Under the pieces are notes generated by a model that was not told the DNA's origin, did not search any database, and worked only from the letters and a program-made list of their open reading frames with translations. This document shows, piece after piece, positions 20,896-56,981 of a stretch of 64,000 nucleotides of DNA. Within the stretch, counting starts at the first letter, position 1; every line of letters begins with the position of its first letter. The stretch covers positions 351,850,001 to 351,914,000 of the forward strand of contig OZ024741.1 in assembly GCA_964016885.1 (NCBI GenBank), read 5' to 3'. The DNA is from Eledone cirrhosa. Lineage: Eukaryota. The position numbers were made by a program, and so were the translations under genes.

Positions 20896-20967
20896 TACAT
20901 TCATATATATATATATATATATATTTTGACTGTTCTCAAGTCCAGCAGTTTCAAGCGGTGGGAGGGA

Positions 20968-21009
20968 CCATCCTGATGAAGGCCAGGCAAGCCTAAAATG
21001 CATAGATAG
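20968..21009 (+). ncRNA. Degenerate minimal hammerhead (GAAA mutated to AAAA)
   Basis: CCATC CTGATGA AGGC caggcaa GCCT AAAA TGCA TA^GATAG. Palindromic stem III ATGCAT. Confidence 0.55.
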
Positions 21010-21676
21010 TTGTCCCCCTTGCTTCTGCTGGTCACCACTAGAGGGTGTTAGCCCAGGTGTTTGCATAGCTATGGCTTCCTAAAACTGCGTTCCTTTTGAA
21101 ATACAAAATTTATATATATATATATGTGTATACACACACATACACATGTTTATGTATATATATATGCCAGATAAACCTATACGAGTGAGACACGGTCACC
21201 CGACCAATCTTGCCTCAAGTGGGACAACTCCCGTCTAACCCATGCTAGCGTGGAAGATAGACGTTAAACAACGATGATGATATATATATATATGTAGAGA
21301 CATATATTTGTTTTGCAAGGTTTCTGATATGAAATCGTGTGTCGCCCACATATACATATATATATAAACATATATACATATACACACATATATATACATA
21401 AACTTAAGAAAATTAACAAAGCGAGGACAAGACAAACAAGGCAAAACAAAAAACAATTTTTTAAGGGGAAACCTTAAAAAATTATTTAAAAAAATAAAAA
21501 TATGAAAGAAGGACACAGAAGTCCAGGGTCTTTGGCCAATGAGATGAGCTTTGGCAGTTTCGACCCCATACCAATGGTACTGCTGGTCCACCCAGGATCA
21601 CAGTGTCTGACACAAGCCAAACGCTGTCCAGTGGAGTAAGAAACAAGAGATAGAACATTATTTATAGCAATTAAGC

Positions 21677-22180: not shown

Positions 22181-24800
22181 ACGACCTCACGGTCAGAACT
22201 AGACGAGCCCTGAAACAGAGGCCAACCTGGAGAAGAAAGATCTGGAAGCTGAAAGTCCCCTCAACCAGTAACAGATTTAAAGATATTTTACTCAACGCCT
22301 ACGACAGTAAAGAAGAACAGATAGAGACATTTAACGTAGAAGAGAACTGGGAGTTCCTAAAAAATAACTTACTAGAGGCGACGGATGAGGTTTGTGGCTG
22401 GAGTAAGACCTCAAGCAGGAGGAGAGTGACTTGGTGGTGGAACAATAAAGTAGATGAAGCAGTCAAGGCCAAGAGACAGGCATGGAAAGAATGGAAGAAC
22501 GGGGGGAGCAGGGTACATTACATAGAGACCAAGAGGGAAGCTAGGCGACAAGTATACTTAGCTAGGAGGGAAGCAGAGGATAGAAAATTCAAGCATGTTT
22601 TACAACGTGAGGACCAGAAACAGGAGGTATTCAAGATTGCGAGGCAGTGTGTCAGAGATAGTTGTGATGTCATTGGAGAGAAGTGTATCCGGAATGATAA
22701 AGGTGAGCTTGCCCTCACAAGTGCTGAGAAGAAAGATGCATGGAAGAGTCATTATGATAGATTACTAAATGAGGAGAATGCATGGGAAGAAGAGACCCTA
22801 CCCCACGTAGACCCTATAGAGGGACCAGCAGTACAAGTCAGCGGCAGCGTAGTAAGTAAGGCAATCAGAGATATGAAGATAGGGAAGGCAACCGGTCCAT
22901 CGGGTATAGCTGCCGAGATGCTGAAGGCATCTGGGTCTGTAGGTCACACTATAACCACACGTATCGTTAACCAGGTAATACTAGAGGGGGCCATACCAAA
23001 AGATTGGTGCAGTAGCATCATTGTCAACTGCTACAAAGGTAAAGGCGATGCACTAGATAGAGGAAACTATAGAGGTATAAAGTTGATGGACCAGGTCATG
23101 AAAGTAACAGAAAGAGTTATAGCACAGCTGATTAGGGACCGGGTGAATATAGACGAGATGCAATTTGGGTTTGTTCCAGGGAAAGGCACCACTGATGCGC
23201 TCTTCCTTGTGAGGCAATTACAGGAAAAGTACCTAGCTAAAAGTAAGCCACTCTACTTGGCATTTGTCGACCTTGAGAAAGCCTTTGACAGAGTTCCACG
23301 TGCAGTAATCTGGTGGGCTCTTAGAAAACTAGGAGTAGATGAATGGCTTGTGAAAGCGGTACAAGCCATGTATAGGGGAGCAGTCAGCAAAGTTAGGATT
23401 GGCAATGAGTATAGCGAGGAATTTAGCGTACAGGTTGGGGTCCACCAGGGCTCTGTTCTTAGCCCTCTCCTGTTCATCATAGTCCTGCAGGCAATAACGG
23501 AGGAGTTTAAGACCGGATGCCCATGGGAACTCCTGTATGCTGATGACCTCGCACTCATAGCTGAATCTATGGTAGAACTAGAGAATAAATTCCAAACCTG
23601 GAAGCAGGGACTAGAGAGAAAGGGCCTCAAAGTCAACATGACAAAGACTAAGGTCCTTATAAGTAGACGAGAAAACAGAACCCAGATCCCCTCAGGGAAA
23701 TGGCCTTGCTCAGTATGTAGGAAAGGTGTAGGTAGGAACTCCATTCTTTGCCCCAAATGCAAACAATGGGTACACAAGAGATGTAGCGGGATCTCAGGAA
23801 GCTTAATTAAGAATGTAGGATTCACATGCAGCAGCTGTGCTGAAACAGCAAGCAAACAGCCACAGGAAACAAGTACCACCAATCTCTGGGAGGGCCCTGT
23901 AGAAACAGTAGACAGCTTCTGCTACCTAGGTGACCGAATTAGCAACGGAGGTGGGTGCTCAGAAAGTACAATAACTAGGGTAAGAACGGGATGGAAGAAG
24001 TTTAGGGAACTACTACCACTGCTAGCTGCAAAAGGCTTCTCCCTCAGAATGAAAGGCAGACTGTATGATGCGTGTATCCGAACAGCGATGTTGCATGGTA
24101 GTGAGACCTGGGCGCTGAAGGTGGAAGACTTACGTAGATTAGAGAGAAACGAAGCCTGCATGCTCCGATGGATGTGTAACAGTAATATACGTGAACGACA
24201 AAGCATAAATGAATTGAGAGAGAGACTGAGCATAAGAGGAATCAAATGCTGCGTGCAGGAGAGGCGGTTACGCTGGTATGGACATGTGATGCGTATGAAG
24301 GATGACAGCTGCATAAAAAGGTGCAGAGCACTAGAAGTTGATGGAAACCGCGGAGTGGGGAGACCCAAGATGACTTGGGATGAGGTGATAAAAGCCGACC
24401 TTACCCAACTACACCTCTCAAAGTCAATGACACACGACCGTGACTTCTGGCGTCACGCAGTAATACAGGGTACCCGACCTCCCATGGGTACATGCTGAAG
24501 CATATAAACAATATGCCCCCCCCCCCCCCCACCGCAAGGTGGTCGTGGAGGTGCCACGGCAAAAAAAGCACCCAGCCCACACTGTAAAGTGGACGTGTAG
24601 GCGCCACGAAAAAGCACCCAGCACTCACTGTAAATGAGGTTGGTGTTAGGAAGGGCATCCAGCTGTAGAAATCAAGCCAGATCAGTTCCTGTATGAGCAA
24701 GGCATGGTCAGCCGACCAGACACTGCCCACAACAGGACAACCCGTCTAACCCATGCTAGCGTGGAAGAACGGACGTAAAACGGTGATGATGATGATGATG
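22181..24800 (+). mobile_element. 5'-truncated RTE LINE, subfamily B; ORF open from 22181 to 24498
   Basis: Post-endonuclease linker (TWWWNNKV), complete RT motifs, C4HC3 insert, 3' UTR modules and (GAT)n tail. The upstream part of the predicted 855-aa ORF is microsatellite. Confidence 0.95.
23707..23838 (+). other. PHD-like C4HC3 zinc finger inserted inside the RT
   Basis: CSVC-x10-CPKC-x4-H-x2-C-x14-CSSC located between YADD and FCYLG. Confidence 0.85.
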
Positions 24801-25340: not shown

Positions 25341-26794
25341 CACACACACATATATATATGCACACACACATATATCACATTTTAGAGCATTTGTTTATTG
25401 TCTCCACATACACCACACACTCACACAGTCTACCAACATTAAGATTCAGAAATAACATTAAAACACAAACATGCATACCACCTACCTCTCTCTCCCCCTC
25501 ACTCTCTCTGTCTATTCCTCCCCACTATCATATATCCTTCTCTCTAATGCAAGAACTATACCACAATACATTATAAAAATCGATATTACAAATTTAATGA
25601 ATACCTACAAATTAATAAAGTTTCATTTTATTTTGTTTCATGCTTGATTGTGTTGTGTTTTGTATGTTTACTCTAGTAGTAGTTGTTGTAGGTTGTAGTC
25701 ATAGTAGTAGTAGTATCAGTTGTTGTTGTTGTAACAGTATTAGTAGTTGTTTTGCCATCTCTCCAAAGAGATTGTTGTGTTTTCACAATTAGACACAAGA
25801 AAATATCACTTTGGCCCATCCTCCTCACCCTGCAAGCAATTTAAAAGTTTTCTAATGAAATAAGAACATATATATATATATATATAAATAATAATGATGA
25901 TCATGATCATGATAATAATAAGAAAAAGAAGCAGAAAGAAAGATCTTTCTCTAATGTCAAATTTCCAAGCAATCTGAAACAGAACTGTCAGACATTTTTA
26001 CACATACAATACAAATATATAAACATAAACATACATCTATATTCTATAATATATAGACTTATTCATTATGTTTCAGCAAAGCATCTATTCCACAGTAACT
26101 CACTTCTTGTCTGATGAAGCTTACTGAACACACACTTTGACGAAACATTGTGGCTGTAATGTAGGATTATCAATAAATCTACATTTACAATACTCCATTA
26201 TATATATTGATTTCTTCCTCTATTGTGTGCTATGACAATTACAAGATGAGAACCCTACCATATTATTGCCTGACAAATATTCTTTTAGGGAACCCACTAT
26301 ATACCTGAAAATAGTCATTGCCTTAAGCAGTATATTTATTAACCTTTTCATTACCATATTTCTAATGTGATTTTCAATTAATTTTGAAAATAATCAAGAA
26401 TTTGGAGAGAATTAATAAAATATCTACATTTCTCCATATTAAGCAATTACATAAAACAAGGACAGACGGTTTTTATATAAGTATATACAGTTTTGTGTTA
26501 CAGAATCATGAGCTGTTTTATGTGGTTTGGTATCAAAAGGCTTTAGGAAGATAACATAAAACAATTGACATAATAGGGACTGAAGAAGAATATTAGCATT
26601 TTCAGTATTATTTATTGTCTTATAGTAAGGAGAGTGTAATTTAGTATATAATAGTAAGTGTTGGTGGTGGTGGTGAAGAAGAAGAAAAAGAAGCATAGCA
26701 GGTGGAGAGAAAGAAAATTTTAGAACAATAAGGCTTTCTATAACTTGACTAGCAACATTAAAGGTATACATCAGACAGGCAGGGTGTGTTGAGG

Positions 26795-38276: not shown

Positions 38277-38334
38277 TTCATTCTGATGATTGAAAGCAAA
38301 ATTTTTGCTTTTAAGAAACCACTGGTAAATGGAA
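38277..38334 (+). ncRNA. Intact minimal type I hammerhead in a solo PLE terminal repeat (about 38222-38365)
   Basis: TTCATT CTGATGA TTGAAAGCAAAA/TTTTGCTTTTAA GAAA CCA C TGG TA^AATGGA. Nearly identical to 56490-56623. Confidence 0.85.
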
Positions 38335-46652: not shown

Positions 46653-47923
46653 TGTATGCTGATGACCTCGCACTCATAGCTGAATCTATGGTAGAACTAG
46701 AGAATAAATTCCAAACCTGGAAGCAGGGACTAGAGAGAAAGGGCCTCAAAGTCAACATGACAAAGACTAAGGTCCTTGTAAGTAGACGAGAAAACAGAAC
46801 CCAGATCCCCTCAGGGAAATGGCCTTGCTCAGTATGTAGGAAAGGTGTAGGTAGGAACTCCATTCTCTGCCCCAAATGCAAACAATGGGTACACAAGAGA
46901 TGTAGCGGGATCTCAGGAAGCTTAATTAAGAATGTAGGATTCACATGCAGCAGCTGTGCTGAAACAGCAAGCAAACAGCCACAGGAAACAAGTACCACCA
47001 ATCTCTGGGAGGGCCCTGTAGAAACAGTAGACAGCTTCTGCTACCTAGGTGACCGAATTAGCAACGGAGGTGGGTGCTCAGAAAGTACAATAACTAGGGT
47101 AAGAACGGGATGGAAGAAGTTTAGGGAACTACTACCACTGCTAGCTGCAAAAGGCTTCTCCCTCAGAATGAAAGGCAGACTGTATGATGCGTGTATCCGA
47201 ACAGCGATGTTGCATGGTAGTGAGACCTGGGCGCTGAAGGTGGAAGACTTACGTAGATTAGAGAGAAACGAAGCCTGCATGCTCCGATGGATGTGTAACA
47301 GTAATATACGTGAACGACAAAGCATAAAGGAATTGAGAGAGAGACTGAGCATAAGAGGAATCAAATGCTGCGTGCAGGAGAGGCGGTTACGCTGGTATGG
47401 ACATGTGATGCGTATGAAGGATGACAGCTGCATAAAAAGGTGCAGAGCACTAGAAGTTGATGGAAACCGCGGAGTGGGGAGACCCAAGATGACTTGGGAT
47501 GAGGTGATAAAAGCCGACCTTACCCAACTACACCTCTCAAAGTCAATGACACACGACCGTGACTTCTGGCGTCACGCAGTAATACAGGGTACCCGACCTC
47601 CCATGGGTACATGCTGAAGCATATAAACAATATGCCCCCACTCCCCCCACCGCAAGGTGGTCGTGGAGGTGCCACGGCAAAAAAGCACCCAGCCCACACT
47701 GTAAAGTGGACATGTAGGCGCTACGAAAAAGCACCCAGCACTCACTGTAAATGAGGTTGGTGTTAGGAAGGGCATCCAGCTGTAGAAATCAAGCCAGATC
47801 AGTTCCTGTATGAGCAAGGCATGGTCAGCCGACCAGACACTGCCCACAACAGGACAACCTGTCTAACCCATGCTAGCGTGGAAGAACGGACGTAAAACGG
47901 TGATGATGATGATGATGATGATG
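46653..47923 (+). mobile_element. RTE subfamily B copy truncated at YADD; nearly identical to 23534-24800
   Basis: ORF 46652-47617 differs from the 22-kb copy by only about 2 aa, and the 3' UTR and tail match. Confidence 0.95.
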
Positions 47924-48039
47924 ACACACACATCTATATATATACACACACACACATCTCTCTATATATATACATACACACATATCTCTATATACACACA
48001 CATATATATATTTATATATATACATATATCTATATATAT

Positions 48040-49125
48040 GACCCCGTCACTTCTCGCTTTTTTTCCAACCCACCCATTACTGCTTTTAAGTGCGCCCGCA
48101 ACCTCTGCAACATCCTGGTTCGCAGTTCCTTTTCGTCCTCTCCCACGACTCAACCCGGCTCTCATCCTTGTTCCCGTTCCCGCTGCAACACTTGTCCCTT
48201 TATTTCCACCCTCCCCACTTTTACAGGCCCTAACAGGTTTTTCCGTATCCGCTATTCCTTCACCAATCAACCACGTTGTCTATGCCCTCCGGTGTTCTCT
48301 TTGCGGGTCTTTATATATCGGACAAATGGGACGCCGTATGGCAGACCGTTTTGCTGAACATTTGAGGAACATACGACTCGGTTTGGATACTCCTGTCGCC
48401 CGTCATTTCTGTTCTCCTGGTCATTTTTCCCTATATGTTTCAGTTTTTGGTGTCCTTTTACATCATGGATCACAGACCTCGCGCACCAGGACTGAACAAA
48501 GTCTGATTCATCACCTTGAGTCCTATTCCCCTCTTGGACTCAATTCACCTCCCCAATTTCTTTAATAGCCTGTCCATTATCACATCCCTAGATTCCTATC
48601 GCTTTCTCTTGATCATTAGCAGCTTCTCTTACAACTAATACATGCCGACTATATATACTCACTCCACTTTTCCCTTCACTGCTCTGTATACACACATACA
48701 CACCCTTATATTAACATACTTTTGCTCATAGCTTTGTACTTACATGCACACATACTCTTTTACTCACATATACACACACTTTTCTTCTTAGCTTCGTACG
48801 GACGTATAACATACACACAAACACATGCTTTCGCACGTGCACAAGTATAGCACTTTTTACAAAACGTTTTTTTTTCCACTTTTCTAAAAAATAAATCATA
48901 CACAAAATGCCAGCACCAACAGTTTTGCAAGAGATGTCAACATGAATGAACCTGTTATTTTTATCTAAAGACATTTTTTCCAATTCCATCCCCTCAATCT
49001 ATCTTATTTCTCATTCTATCTTCTGATGAAGGACTAGCATCCCAAACGTTAAGACTCTATTCCTGCTATATCAAGCGTTAACCTAATATATCCCTTCCAT
49101 ATACTATACCGATTGTGTTATTTCT
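48040..49125 (+). mobile_element. Neptune-like Penelope element 3' fragment (Cys linker, GIY-YIG, terminal repeat)
   Basis: HPCSRSRCNTCP (frameshifted), HVVYALRCSLCGSLYIGQ..RFAEH, PVARHF..H, EQSLIHHL and PLGLN. Degenerate HHR TCTT CTGATGA AGGA..TCC CAAAC GTT AAGA at 49019-49054. Confidence 0.88.
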
Positions 49126-49164: not shown

Positions 49165-50500
49165 CCCTTTCCCACGAATGTTGGCAAATGCCCAAAACTC
49201 TGAGTTGAAACCATCAATGTAAGCACAATGAAAGGAACAGCAGAAGAAATCGTAGAGATGCTAGAGCGAAAGGAAATTGATGTATGCTGTGTGCAAGAGA
49301 CTAGATGGAGAGGAGGGTCTGCTAGAGTCCTTATAGGCAAAAGGTAGGTGGGAAATGACAATGGGATGGGTGGTCTAGGTATCCTACTAGCTGAGAAATG
49401 GGTAGATAAGGTAATCACAGTGAACAGGGTGAATGCAAGAATCATTAAACTCAGACTAGTCCTGAATAAAACAATTACCACAATAATATCAGCTTACGCA
49501 CCCCAATCGGGGTTGCCAGATGAACTTAAGGATAGGTTTTACGAGTCCCTAATGCACACTACTGCTCTAACAAACGACAATGACTTCCTAATCATTGCAG
49601 GAGATTTTAACGGACACGTAGGTAAACACCGTGACAGCTTCTATAGAGTCCATGGAGGCCACGGATTTGGCACAAGAAATGAAGAAGGCTTCAGGCTTCT
49701 AGAATTCTGCGACGCCAATGACATGTCGATATGTAACACAAATTTCAAAAAACCAGACAACCACCTGATCACCTATAGATCAGGGGAGCATTCTAGTCAG
49801 ATAGATTTTATCCTCATCAGAGGACGTGACAGATGGACGGTCATAAACACAAAAGTCTTCCCAGGTGAGGAATGTACCCCCCAACATAACTTAGTTGTCA
49901 GCGACCTCATTGTCAAAATTAGACGAACTTGGAAACAGAAGGCAACCTGGAGAAGAAAGATCTGGAAGCTGAAAGACCCCTCAGCCAGTAACAGATTTAA
50001 AGATATTTTACTCGACACCTATGACAGTAAAGAAGAACAGATATAGACATTCAATGTAGAAGAACACTGGGAGTTCCTAAAAAATAACTTACTAAAGGTG
50101 ACGGATGAGATCTGTGGATGGAGTAAGACCACAGGCAGGAGGAGAGTGACTTGGTGGTGGAACAATAAGGTGGATGAGGCAGTTAAGGCCAAGAGACAGG
50201 CATGGAAAGAATGGAAAAACAGGGGAAGCAGGGTACGTTACATAGAGACCAGGAGGGAAGCTAGGTGACAAGTATACTTAACTAGAAGGGAAGCGGAGGA
50301 TAGAAAATTCAAGCATGTCTTGCAACGTGAGGACCAGAAACAGGAGGTGTTCAAGATTGCAAGGCAGTGTGTCAGAGAGAATTGTGATGTCATTGGAGAG
50401 AAGTGTATCCGGAATGATAAAGGTGAGCTTGCCCTCACAAGTGCCGAGAATAAAGATGCGTGGAAGAGCCATTATGAAAGATTACTAAATGAGGAGAATG
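49165..50500 (+). pseudogene. RTE ORF N-terminal half: AP endonuclease domain, interrupted at 50500
   Basis: TINVSTM, DVCCVQETRW, ISAYAPQ, IIAGDFNGHVG, QIDFIL and QHNLVV. Overlaps in sequence with the 5' part of the 22-kb copy. Confidence 0.93.
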
Positions 50501-50663
50501 TATATATATATATATACATACATGCACACATATATATATATGTACATATGGATTCACCGAACATTTATTATAATGCTCGGTGTTTTTGTAAACAAACAAC
50601 CCGAATTAAGCCATACAGTGTCTAGCAACCATCGTTGCTCATTTGTTCAACACTGCCAAAGGA

Positions 50664-50706
50664 ACGCTGTACTAGTTTCAAGCTTATTATCTATCGTCAG
50701 CAACGT
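50664..50706 (-). ncRNA. Minimal hammerhead, tandem copy 1
   Basis: ACGTTG CTGACGA TAGATAATAAGCTT GAAA CTAG TA^CAGCGT. Confidence 0.75.
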
Positions 50707-50963
50707 ATACCTTCCTGCCAGATGGTTGAACGTCTGAAAGTATATACTTTCCTTATGCATATTAACAACCGAGCAGCCTAATTTGCATATCGAGTGAGTT
50801 AATCGGCCGGGGTACCGAAAACGATAAATGGAAAAATATTTAAGTAACAGCCGTACTAAGAGTGAGAAATGAAATTTTGTTTCATTTTTTCCGTTTATCG
50901 TTTTCGGTACCTCGGCCGATTAACTCAACCATCGTTGCTCATTTGTTCAACACTGACAAAGGA

Positions 50964-51006
50964 ACGCTGTACTAGTTTCAAGCTTATTATCTATCGTCAG
51001 CAACGT
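50964..51006 (-). ncRNA. Minimal hammerhead, tandem copy 2
   Basis: Identical motif 300 bp from copy 1. Confidence 0.75.
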
Positions 51007-51315
51007 ATACCTTCCTGCCAGATGGTTGAACGTCTGAAAGTATATACTTTCCTTATGCATATTAACGGCTGAGCAGCCTAATTTGCAATTCGAGTGAGTT
51101 AATCGGCCGGGGTACCGAAAACGATAAACGGGAAAATATTTAAGTAACAGCCGTACTAAGAGGGAGAAATGAAATTTCGTTTCATTTTTTCCGTTTATCG
51201 TTTTCGGTACCCCGGCCGATTAACTCACTCGATATGCAAATTAGGCTGCTCAGCCGTTAATATGCATAAAGAAAGTATATACTTTCAGACGTTCAACCAT
51301 CTGGCAGGAAGGTAT

Positions 51316-51358
51316 ACATTGCTGATGATAGCTAATAAGCTTGAAACTAGTACAGCGT
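51316..51358 (+). ncRNA. Minimal hammerhead, inverted arm
   Basis: ACATTG CTGATGA T AGCT aata AGCT T GAAA CTAG TA^CAGCGT. Palindromic stem III ACTAGT. Confidence 0.78.
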
Positions 51359-51531
51359 ATCTTTGTCAGTGTTGAACAAATGAGCAACGATGGTTGCTAG
51401 ACACTGTACGGCTTAATTCGGGTTGTTTGTTTACAAACACACCGAGCATTATAATAAATGTTCGGTGAATCCATACATACATATATATATGTGTGCATGT
51501 ATGCATATATACTTATATATATATATAATAT

Positions 51532-52443
51532 ATCATCATCATCAACGTTTAACGTCCGTGTTCCACGCTTGCATGGGTTTGGACGGGGGTTTTCCCACTT
51601 GAGGCAAGAGTGATTATCTTGCTCGCATAGGACTATCTGGCGGGTTTTCTACAGCTGGATGCCCTTCCTAACACCAACCACATTTACAGTGCAGGGCTGG
51701 GAGGTTTTTACCGTGTTGCCTACACGGCCACATTACAGCGTGAACTGTGTTTTTTTTTGTCGTGACATCTACACGATCTCATTTGTTTCGGCCTGGATGT
51801 TGTGGCACCAACATAACTTTACATTGAAAGGGGTGGGGGTGGTGGGACGGGGGTGTATTTTGTTAGAGATGCCTACTGACAGTAGTAGGTTTTACTTTGT
51901 ATTTAGGTAAGGCGGGTCTTCTCTATTACTGAGTACCGCTAAAGGTCTCGGTCCAGTGACATTGTCTTGGTGAGGTGTAAGTGTGGGAGGTCGGAATTAA
52001 TCAGCTCGTCCCAGGTCTTTCTGGGTCTGCCTATTCCGTGGCTACCGTCTATCTTTATTGCCCTGCACTTTGTTATACAGCTACCGTCTTTAATGCGCAT
52101 CACGTGACCATACCAACGTAGCCTTCTCTCGAGTAAACAACATCTGATCCCTCTTATTTCTAATTTTTTCCTTAGTTCGTTTATGCTTTGCCGTTCACGT
52201 ATATTACTATTACACATCCAGTGGAGCATGCAAGCTTCGTTTCTCTCTAGTCTGCGTATATCCTCTGCACACAATGCCCAGGTCTCACCGCCATGCAACA
52301 TTGCTGTTCGTATGCAGGCATCATACAACCTGGCTTTCATTTTTAGGGAGTACCCTTTAGCGGCTAATAGTGGTATAAGCTCTCTGAACTTTTTCCATCC
52401 AGTTCTGACTCTAGCTACTGTACTTTCAGAGCACCCTCCCCCA

Positions 52444-52445
<2 letters not shown>
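51532..52445 (-). mobile_element. RTE subfamily A 3' fragment
   Basis: [13 protein letters not shown]...RRLRWYGHV, 3' UTR and (GAT)n tail. Premature stop near the ORF end. Confidence 0.93.
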
Positions 52446-52494
<49 letters not shown>

Positions 52495-52519
52495 TATATA
52501 ATATATATATATATAATAT

Positions 52520-52766: not shown

Positions 52767-52780
52767 TATATATAAATATA
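52446..52780. repeat. Interrupted (TA)n array
   Basis: TA runs punctuated by AA. Confidence 0.95.
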
Positions 52781-54656
52781 CAATAATAATTTTCAAACTA
52801 AACTTTCTCACGATATCTCTAATTTTAGAAATTCTACAAACACTTTCGTTCTTTCTGATAAAACCAAAAACCTCTTTGAAGTTAATAGTAATTTGTATAA
52901 CCAACTTTTAACTAATAGTATTACCAATAAATATCAATTAACTAATAATAATAGCTACAATACTATCAATAAAGAAGCTAAAGAACTAGCTAGTTCTTTA
53001 CAAATAGATAACCGGATTGAAAGCTTAGCTAAGCGTAAAGCATATATTACCCTTAAAGACCATAAATTGGACTTTACTAATCGACCTAGTTGTAGACTGA
53101 TTAACCCGGCTAAATCCGAGGTTGGCCTTGCTAGTAAGAAAATCTTAAGAAAAATAATTCTCCAAATTAGAACTAACACTGTCCTTTCACAGTGGCTAAA
53201 TACTTCCTCTGTTATTTCTTGGTTCAATAATATACAAGGTAAAAATAAGTGTAGATTTACGCAATTTGATATTGTCGATTTTTACCCTTCTATTACCGTT
53301 TCCTTATTAACTAAAGCCTTAGATTTTGCAAGACCCTTCATTAATATCTCCAAATTAGAAGAGGACATTATCTTTCATGCCAGAAAAACTTTACTTTTTA
53401 CTAATGATAATATTTGGGTTAAAAAGTCAAACCCTGAAAACTCTTTCGATGTTGCAATGGGTTCTTATGACAGTGCGGATGTGTGCGACTTAGTAGGATT
53501 ATTCCTTCTCCACACACTCAAAGAGAAATTTCCGTCCCATAATATCGGTTTATACCGTGATGACGGATTAGCAGTTTCTCATACCACCAATGGCCATAAT
53601 CTTGATAAATTCCGTAAAGATTTAATTAGTACCTTTGCTAATCTTAACCTTAAAATTACTATAGATACGAACCTTACTAATGCTAACTTTCTTGATATTA
53701 ATCTTGATCTACTTACTGCCTCTTTTAAACCCTATCATAAACCTAATGAAAATCTTAGGTATATACACAAAGAGTCTTGCCATCCCCCTATAGTTTTTAA
53801 TAATCTTATTCCTAACATTAGCCGTAGGATTTCTACTTTATCTTCGTCTATAGACATTTTTAATAAAGCCGCCCCTTATTATAATAAAGCCCTTAAGAAC
53901 AGCGGTTTTACAGAAAATATTTCTTATTTACCTACTCCCCCCCCCCTAAAACTAACCATAATAACAGGAAAAGGAAGATTATTTGGTTCACACCCCCCTT
54001 CTCTCTAAATGTCAAAACTAATGTAGGAAGGAAATTCCTTGAACTATTAGACAAACATTTTCCTCCTATTCATAGATATTATAAGATTTTTAATAGGAAT
54101 GTAGTTAAGATCAGCTACTCTTGTTGTCCATCCATGAAATCCAAAATCACCAGTTCAAACCGTACGAGGATAAATCCAGGATGCAGTTGCAGGAAGCCGG
54201 ATGAATGCCCATTGCAGGGTAAATGTAACACAAAATCTGTCGTTTATGAGGCTAAAACAACGCCAGTTATCAACAACCAGCCAGCCAGAAGCGAGCGATA
54301 TGTCGGTATGACCCAGGACAGGTTTAAAACCAGATTTTACTCACATGTCGCTTCTTTTAAACACTCAGATAAACGAACATCAACGGCTCTCGCAAGTAAG
54401 GTATGGGATCTCAAGGATAGTAATATCCCGTACTCTATTGATTGGTCTATATTAGACCATTCGAGGGAGTACCAAAGGGGCACAAAGAATTGTTCTTTGT
54501 GTACCACAGAAAAGTATAGGATTTTGCTAAACTTGAGAGACACTTCCGCTTGCCTTAACTCTAAGACTGAGTGAGATCTTCAGATGCTGTCCTCATCTGA
54601 AATCGCATCTGATCTGTAACTGGATTGACACTCCTACGATAAATCAACCGCCTTGA
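52781..54656 (+). pseudogene. Penelope-like RT plus GIY-YIG ORF (Hydra-clade-like, tentative), 5'-truncated, two frameshifts
   Basis: SDKTKNL, ITLKDHK, CRLINP, QFDIVDFYPSI, AMGS, LYRDDG, NFLDI, RKIIWFTPPFS, CSCRKPDECPLQGKC, VVY..YVG and CSLCTTEK. Frameshifts at the C10 run (53937-53946) and a TGAG duplication (54568-54575). Confidence 0.92.
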
Positions 54657-56625
<1,969 letters not shown>

Positions 56626-56699
56626 TAATAATAATTAAGCTCTGTTGCTTACATAGAGCACTCTTTTTTCCTGAACTTTTCCGATGGAATTACTTCATT

Positions 56700-56981
56700 T
56701 ATATAATATATATATATATAAATATATAATATATATATATATAATATATATATATATAATATATATATATATATAAATATATAATATATATAAATATATA
56801 ATATATATATATAATATATATATATAATATATATATATAATATATATATATATAATATATATATATATAATATATATATATATAATATATATATATAATA
56901 TATATATATATAATATATATATATATAATATATATATATATAATATATAATATATATATATATATAATATATATATATAAT

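Follow-up and report, generated by a model that had tools for sequence, protein, structure and literature searches.

A palindromic hammerhead locus of Eledone cirrhosa is very probably a rearranged copy of an abundant 431-nt repeat with the insertion marks of Penelope-like elements

Introduction

How should a palindromic stretch of DNA, 1 kb long, that encodes no protein and carries hammerhead ribozyme (HHR) cores on both strands be understood? Such a stretch lies in the window analysed here, 64,000 nucleotides of the Eledone cirrhosa genome. An earlier note, made from the sequence of the window, had proposed that it is a non-autonomous element mobilised by a Penelope-like element (PLE), with a 300-nt ribozyme-to-ribozyme unit that the minus transcript could release as a monomer or circle. 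Animal non-LTR retrozymes (Cervera and de la Pena 2020, PMC7229834; Li et al. 2026, 10.64898/2026.07.22.740005) are linked to PLEs, in the parts of these two papers that we draw on, by co-occurrence and by homology of terminal repeats. Our analysis leads us to a reading of the locus that we hold with high confidence: it would be one rearranged insertion of a tandem family of 431-nt non-coding HHR repeats, likely copied into (TA)n by a PLE. The window copy itself is scrambled and likely dead, and what it has to tell lies in the abundant family to which it belongs.

Results

Layout of the window copy

The architecture described in the earlier note, with inverted arms, a 300-nt tandem and three HHR cores, was borne out (Table 1). 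Stop-to-stop frames inside the element reach at most 90 aa in the frame listing, so that it has no protein-coding capacity, as had been claimed, and the element does end an RTE-like copy on its left; a sister copy of this RTE-like sequence at 22580-22780 of the window continues past the cut-off point.

Table 1. Features of the locus, in positions of the window
Feature	Position	Strand	Remarks
RTE-like fragment, left neighbour outside the element	49348..50500	+	PF14529 at 49348-50043; cut off at the element junction
Inverted outer arms	50498-50836 / 51186-51524		92% identity
Inverted inner arm	50926-51136 / 51186-51396		96% identity
Direct repeat, 300 nt	50626-50925 / 50926-51225		96% identity; 11 differences
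Left arm, inverted	50501..50836	-	family unit positions about 51-385
Sense segment, unit positions 1-92	50836..50927	+	D-C' of the earlier note; begins at the head-to-head inversion junction
Second copy of the 300-nt duplication	50926..51225	+	repeats 50626-50925; junction 50925/50926
Right arm, one sense unit	51136..51514	+	position 1 to the fixed 3' end 431
Unit positions 1-63	51136..51198	+	source of the optional 3' tail; hairpin, then TTTAT
HHR copy 1	50664..50706	-	core 50675-50700; predicted cut 50670/50669; helix II broken at 50690
HHR copy 2	50964..51006	-	core 50975-51000; predicted cut 50970/50969; helix II change at 50990
HHR copy 3	51316..51358	+	core 51322-51347; predicted cut 51352/51353; helix II intact; helix I mismatch at 51318
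Target (TA)n and (CAT)n	51515..51544	.	end of another repeat that is multicopy in the window
Hydra-clade PLE, broken copy outside the element, 1.3 kb to its right	52776..56703	+	young family; candidate type of enzyme donor

In the coordinates of a ruler unit (L010:1846-2276, with the ribozyme core starting at 187 and the predicted cut after 217), the window reads minus 51 to about 385, plus 1-92, minus 51-261 and plus 1-431. The TA-rich spacer of the right arm is short by about 50 nt, and the left arm has its outer end cut off, without unit end 431 and without the 63-nt tail. The copy fits the insertion pattern of its family, since its right arm stops at 431 in (TA)n and its left arm is truncated where a tail would be expected. 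That the element sits in (TA)n holds for the right end; on the left, the TA-rich sequence (50501-50545) is spacer of the element itself, which abuts the RTE fragment at a 3-nt ATG overlap, and this fusion makes a target duplication unreadable.

The 300-nt stretch itself is without unit positions 262-431 and has positions 1-92 reversed within it. With one mismatch allowed, the duplication junction (50925/50926) occurs once in the 3.0-Gb genome and the head-to-head inversion junction has two matches, both inside the window; these junctions are read from the genome assembly alone, none of four compared contig runs spanning the locus. As both are unique genome-wide, the 300-nt spacing is private to this locus, and the earlier note's own caveat, that the tandem could be a local duplication, proved apt. 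Compared with the commonest letter of each column, the left arm has changed at 9 of 290 nt, the duplicated arm at 4 of 211 and the right arm at 7 of 340. The sole derived change common to both minus arms is the one that breaks helix II, and sharing it indicates that both descend from a single arm and that duplication and insertion are of about the same age.

The 431-nt family and its relatives

The exact 34-nt HHR core has 10,340 matches in the genome, against none for a reversed-pattern control, and the left arm, used as a query against its own genome, returned 2,092 first-look candidates. Tandem copies repeat head to tail with a period of 430-433 nt, so that the natural unit is about 431 nt and not the 300 nt from ribozyme to ribozyme proposed before. 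Within arrays of 2 to 10, units follow each other directly, 431 to 1, and no body intervenes; most sampled insertions consist of one or two units, and 12 of 79 carry at least two tandem HHRs on the same strand. Divergence within an insertion is 5.7% between tandem and 4.5% between inverted copies and 8.0% between insertions, values that are not decisive on the type of template.

Related and unrelated hammerhead repeats occur in the same genome. Sister family B (L121:7879-9501; G000:C2:176980698-176985315) is about 80% identical to the unit and 99% identical among its copies; its arrays contain about ten units, and one array is inverted head to head. Sister family C (L224 / L239-L266) has a 470-nt unit (432 in one variant) with G-C at the base of helix II, copies that are 97-99% identical, and the tail and inversion pattern of the 431-nt family; the palindromic helix III pattern was seen in only three of its copies, and one L224 copy has a non-palindromic loop. 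A further HHR tandem family (L136:1-530, L164:50-660), unrelated to the window duplication, has a true 300-nt period and an ACGCGT palindrome in helix III. At L132:1344-3273, two units alternate (units 1=3, 2=4), a sign of later higher-order duplication.

Hammerheads in the window

After each of the three window cores come the ACTAGT palindrome and a GTA triplet, and a loose core pattern matched the window 8 times against a chance expectation of 0.52. As had been reported, two ribozymes lie on the minus strand, with predicted cuts exactly 300 nt apart, and one on the plus strand; the two minus cores have intact catalytic residues. Each of the three has a stem-breaking change. The helix II mismatch already seen in the minus copies (50690/50990) was confirmed: it is present in 1 of 78 other family copies, the intact base being found in most family members (four contig runs compared), and predicted helix II pairing is 0.0-0.3 in copies 1 and 2 vs 0.9-1.0 in intact copies. 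The plus ribozyme is damaged as well, which had been missed: one helix I pair is lost through a G>A change at 51318, and there are further changes at 51359/51360.

Folding of the full read-through transcript of either strand predicts that the outer arms pair and bury their ribozymes, in keeping with the long hairpin that had been foreseen. While a minus transcript is being made, its inner arm would, judging from complementarity, pair first with the antisense right arm (96%). Treated as a circle, the 300-nt stretch gives a good fold (z about -11.7), largely via the inversion hairpin. Release of a 300-nt monomer or circle from this locus is nevertheless unlikely because of the helix II break shared by both minus ribozymes and the pairing with the antisense right arm. 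The window copy is probably inactive as a ribozyme source.

The hammerhead across the family

In the family, helix I has 6 bp, helix II has 4 bp on a U-U base, and helix III is one Watson-Crick pair with a 2-nt palindromic loop. This is a type I HHR with the helix sizes that the relevant part of PMC4209133 gives for canonical metazoan as against minimal HHRs; the minimal class assigned earlier, defined in Cervera 2014 by 4-5 bp in helix I, 7-8 bp in helix II, the lack of a helix III and G10.1-C11.1, does not apply. Hammerhead scans had been recommended in the earlier note. In a short stretch of an intact copy, Rfam aligned HH9 over all three helices, weakly and below threshold (17.8 bits vs gathering 52, E 0.028), and in 49500-52500 of the window it returned hairpin and microsatellite matches to miRNA models, all sub-gathering, and no hammerhead.

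Covariation of the core in other copies had been set beforehand as a test. Our alignment holds 22 hand-picked rows from 195 distinct core stretches (the unit subfamilies and families B, C and D), which are related and reflect about 6 lineages, not 22 events. With the HHR structure imposed on it, pairing holds in 89.8% of cells, and both sides have changed in 19 of 28 pairs; such two-sided changes affect 5 of 6 pairs in helix I and 3 of 5 in helix II. The covariation score was reached by 0 of 500 shuffles, no slid register came near it, and the core is invariant across copies. On this comparison of sequences, the helices covary across the sister families.

The 431-nt cut-to-cut unit folds far better than its shuffles (z -8.1; z -6.8 without the TA-rich spacer). 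In the single-copy fold of an intact unit an alternative is favoured over helix I, which counts against activity. The palindromic helix III points to cleavage as a dimer. A U-U base of helix II is also described in PMC7229834, for the axolotl HHR_Amex2, which is more active as a dimer. A further point against activity is that, of nine frog dimers tested in the 2026 preprint (10.64898/2026.07.22.740005), only one cleaved.

Insertion signature

Insertions were sampled from the first 100 of the 10,340 core matches (C1, first 42.5 Mb), from which 85 loci were fetched and 6 overlapping ones dropped, leaving 79; the sampling pattern spans the ribozyme cut, which biases the main arm and not the partner arms. 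These 79 insertions contain 126 runs of at least 60 nt, with 3' ends at 427-431 in 55 runs (11 of which may be microsatellite alignment noise, leaving 44 clean ends), at 60-64 in 40, at 47-59 in 11 and elsewhere in 20. A (TA)4 lies within 24 nt beyond 36 of the 40 ends at 63 and 35 of the 44 clean ends at 431, or 71 of 84 clean ends when pooled, compared with 12% of random positions. The 5' starts are scattered over all 20-nt bins of the unit, as in random 5' truncation.

Inversion was found in 40 of the 79 insertions and not in the other 39, with 41 of 42 junctions joining 5' to 5' and a centre that differs in every copy. The palindrome is no designed feature of the element; it is a PLE-type 5' inversion. 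In 41 arm pairs, the ends combine as 431 with 63 (18), 431 with a clipped tail ending at 45-59 (7), 431 with another position (9), 63 with another position (5), 431 with 431 (1) and other with other (1), and never 63 with 63; counting full and clipped tails together, 25 of the 41 pairs are 431 with 63. The family has two fixed 3' ends 63 nt apart, and the tail is on one arm only.

The same arrangement is described for PLE insertions in the relevant passages of PMC8557442 and PMC3846280, the former also reporting heavy 5' truncation. In the portion of Frangieh 2024 (PMC11167929) that concerns us, the tail lies between two internal start sites of reverse transcription, and ribozyme cleavage is dispensable for insertion in vitro. 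All the PLE-type marks are found here: partial tandems, random 5' truncation, 5' inversion, a tail at one end and a microsatellite target. The enzyme class is readable from such ends, and non-autonomous mobilisation by a PLE, as proposed earlier, is very likely on the evidence of the 63/431 ends, the 5'-5' inversions and the (TA)n targets.

A candidate motor

The genome is rich in PLEs, with 10,597 GIY-YIG candidates. A model search (R1) for a homologous pLTR, covering 40 GIY-YIG loci and the window as well as 8 Hydra loci, found no autonomous PLE with the unit as its terminal repeat among the 40 GIY-YIG loci (about 7 families; 40 of 150 listed, out of the 10,597 candidates), and none with the unit as pLTR among the 8 Hydra loci. 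Unit copies near a PLE ORF at L121 and L122 were rejected as pLTRs, being separate (TA)n insertions, and Hydra fragments beside unit copies in the sampled loci were set aside as chance neighbours or nested insertions.

The Hydra-clade PLE on the right is a member of a young family that has RWK, DKT and CxCX5C motifs and intact ORFs of 710-715 aa (e.g. L297:3666-5795); all 150 scored copies are 97-100% identical and the tandem unit is about 4.3 kb. Like the 431-nt family, it has two 3' ends, here about 70 nt apart, that enter (TA)n, one per arm of an inverted pair, and its outer 3' end closes in a TTTAT-like end. No shared sequence was detected between its ribozyme and tail and the 431-nt unit, and a Pfam search of the window copy missed the RT. 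Near its 5' end lies an HHR-like motif, with a degenerate second one in its microsatellite-rich 3' region. Many other Hydra families are present as fragments. This young, (TA)n-targeting family is our best candidate motor, and we put the chances that a Hydra-clade PLE does drive the 431-nt family at roughly even.

Other PLE traces were noted in passing. Window positions 47867-49100 (+) appear to be the 3' end of another PLE, with a GIY-YIG-like frame (by eye; no Pfam match) and a degenerate hammerhead core near 49024. Other families have left hammerhead-like cores at 20933-21050, 26111-26146 and 38283-38319, that at 38283 being a diverged Hydra-family end. Neptune-like PLEs with long ORFs occur at L112:4809-7622, L114 and L126; in the L114/L126 family, an HHR-like motif combines a palindromic helix III with U-U at the base of helix II, and the pLTR of this family is unrelated to the 431-nt unit.

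Discussion

The detailed study of insertion ends offers a way to read how this locus came about. Based on its sequence, we would class the 431-nt family as a new non-LTR retrozyme family that is a non-autonomous PLE derivative. One possible course of events would be that tandem source copies are transcribed as multimers, which the hammerheads, with their 2-nt palindromic helix III loop, would cut as dimers into 431-nt monomers or circles. A PLE protein, most plausibly of the Hydra clade, would nick (TA)n, and reverse transcription would begin at position 63 or 431 of the unit, the RNA being still continuous through the cut site, a second arm being made head to head from the other start site. 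In the window copy, the inversion joined position 51 to position 1; the 300-nt segment was then duplicated during insertion or shortly afterwards, and the outer end on the left was lost against the RTE fragment.

As for the template, we rejected the notion that insertions have their 5' ends where the ribozyme cuts, as only 1 of the 42 starts within 188-338 lies at the predicted cut (213-223). The missing pile-up implies that templates are not usually linear monomers released by the cut, and it would suit an uncut multimer as well as a religated circle. Judged by a helix I pair, neighbouring units were of one subfamily in all 47 of 47 cases, and judged by a 7-nt indel in 32 of 36, counts that include a few overlapping loci and the window copy. 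Three arrays (L045, L135, L171) mix two subfamilies, 3 of 21 typed tandem neighbours being discordant for the 7-nt indel and linked substitutions; one monomeric circle cannot produce such arrays, which secondary insertion or conversion could. One tentative and rather doubtful extension, which draws on the missing pile-up and the mixed arrays, would be that the family is part of a retrozyme radiation with no sequence in common with any autonomous PLE, which parasitises a Hydra-clade PLE by mimicry of its tail and is copied from uncut linear multimers and not from circles. If true, this would provide direct genomic proof that PLEs mobilise retrozymes, and a test of the rolling-circle model.

Three other readings of the locus have to be weighed against a rearranged PLE-type insertion. 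We see a very slim chance that the stretch is an independent palindromic element, its minus transcript freeing a functional 300-nt monomer or circle. The exact spacing of two cores with intact catalytic residues would suit it, and so would the fold of the circle, which owes most to the inversion hairpin, and the existence here of an unrelated family with a true 300-nt period; yet the genome-wide uniqueness of the junction already largely refutes it as a mobile unit, the stretch is an incomplete and partly reversed unit, helix II is broken in both ribozymes, and a transcript started upstream would pair copy 2 with the right arm. That the locus is a MITE or foldback DNA transposon, with a hammerhead-like motif arising by chance in long terminal inverted repeats, has next to no probability. 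Its inverted arms of about 290-340 nt in a TA-rich site do resemble such an element, but the arms are not the terminal inverted repeats of a DNA transposon, an outcome that the earlier note had named as fatal to its proposal: about half of the insertions have no inversion, the centres vary, the outer ends are unequal (431 vs 63), head-to-tail arrays are common and the helices covary as RNA on one strand.

The rearranged insertion could still belong to something larger. The copies might be merely the truncated pLTRs of an autonomous PLE outside our sample and not a separate non-autonomous family, for which we see a slim chance. The insertion signature would be identical, PLE insertions are heavily 5'-truncated (PMC8557442), and the partner search covered part of the PLE candidates. 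What argues against truncated pLTRs is the direct joining of units in arrays with no body between them, and the absence of any common sequence beyond the 5' ends of uninverted runs, where matches are to other repeats or to the family's own spacer.

The window copy is ordinary debris, and the useful part is the family, of which thousands of copies carry the actual marks of PLE insertion. The young sister families (98-99% identical) and the young intact Hydra-clade PLE form a natural pair for tests of trans-mobilisation, and the same pair suits the question of whether circles or uncut multimers serve as template.

Among known systems, the animal non-LTR retrozymes as described in the parts of PMC7229834 and of the 2026 preprint (10.64898/2026.07.22.740005) used here come close: their units, 150-450 bp long, are non-coding, follow one another head to tail, each contain a type I HHR and number thousands of copies; they coexist with PLEs, and two axolotl ribozymes share features with ours, HHR_Amex2 the mismatched U-U on which helix II rests and HHR_Amex1 the weak palindromic helix III. 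Unlike them, our sampled insertions have mostly one or two units, and the family displays a tail, 5' inversion and TA target, explicit marks of PLE ends that those parts do not report for retrozymes. Our literature search on hammerheads and Penelope in octopus, retrozymes in cephalopods and non-autonomous PLE tails returned no description of the 431-nt family.

PLE insertions with pLTRs, in the relevant sections of Arkhipova 2013 (PMC3846280), Craig 2021 (PMC8557442) and Frangieh 2024 (PMC11167929), likewise show partial tandems, random 5' truncation, head-to-head inversion, an optional tail at one end, a microsatellite target and an HHR inside the repeat. The family differs from them in having no ORF, a tail of 63 nt and not of 30-40, and no match to the sampled autonomous pLTRs. 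The non-autonomous Chlamys elements such as MRC1, in the account given by part of PMC8557442, are also ORF-less, multicopy, head-to-tail passengers of PLEs; their 3' sequence is generally held in common with their autonomous families, and HHRs are missing from most Chlamys, whereas the 431-nt family has an HHR and no homologous partner among the sampled PLEs. The Hydra-clade PLEs are autonomous, with a unit of about 4.3 kb locally and an HHR and tail unrelated in sequence to ours, but they combine insertion into (TA)n with canonical HHRs (PMC8557442, in its part on this clade), and the local Hydra family shares with the 431-nt family the presence of two 3' ends.
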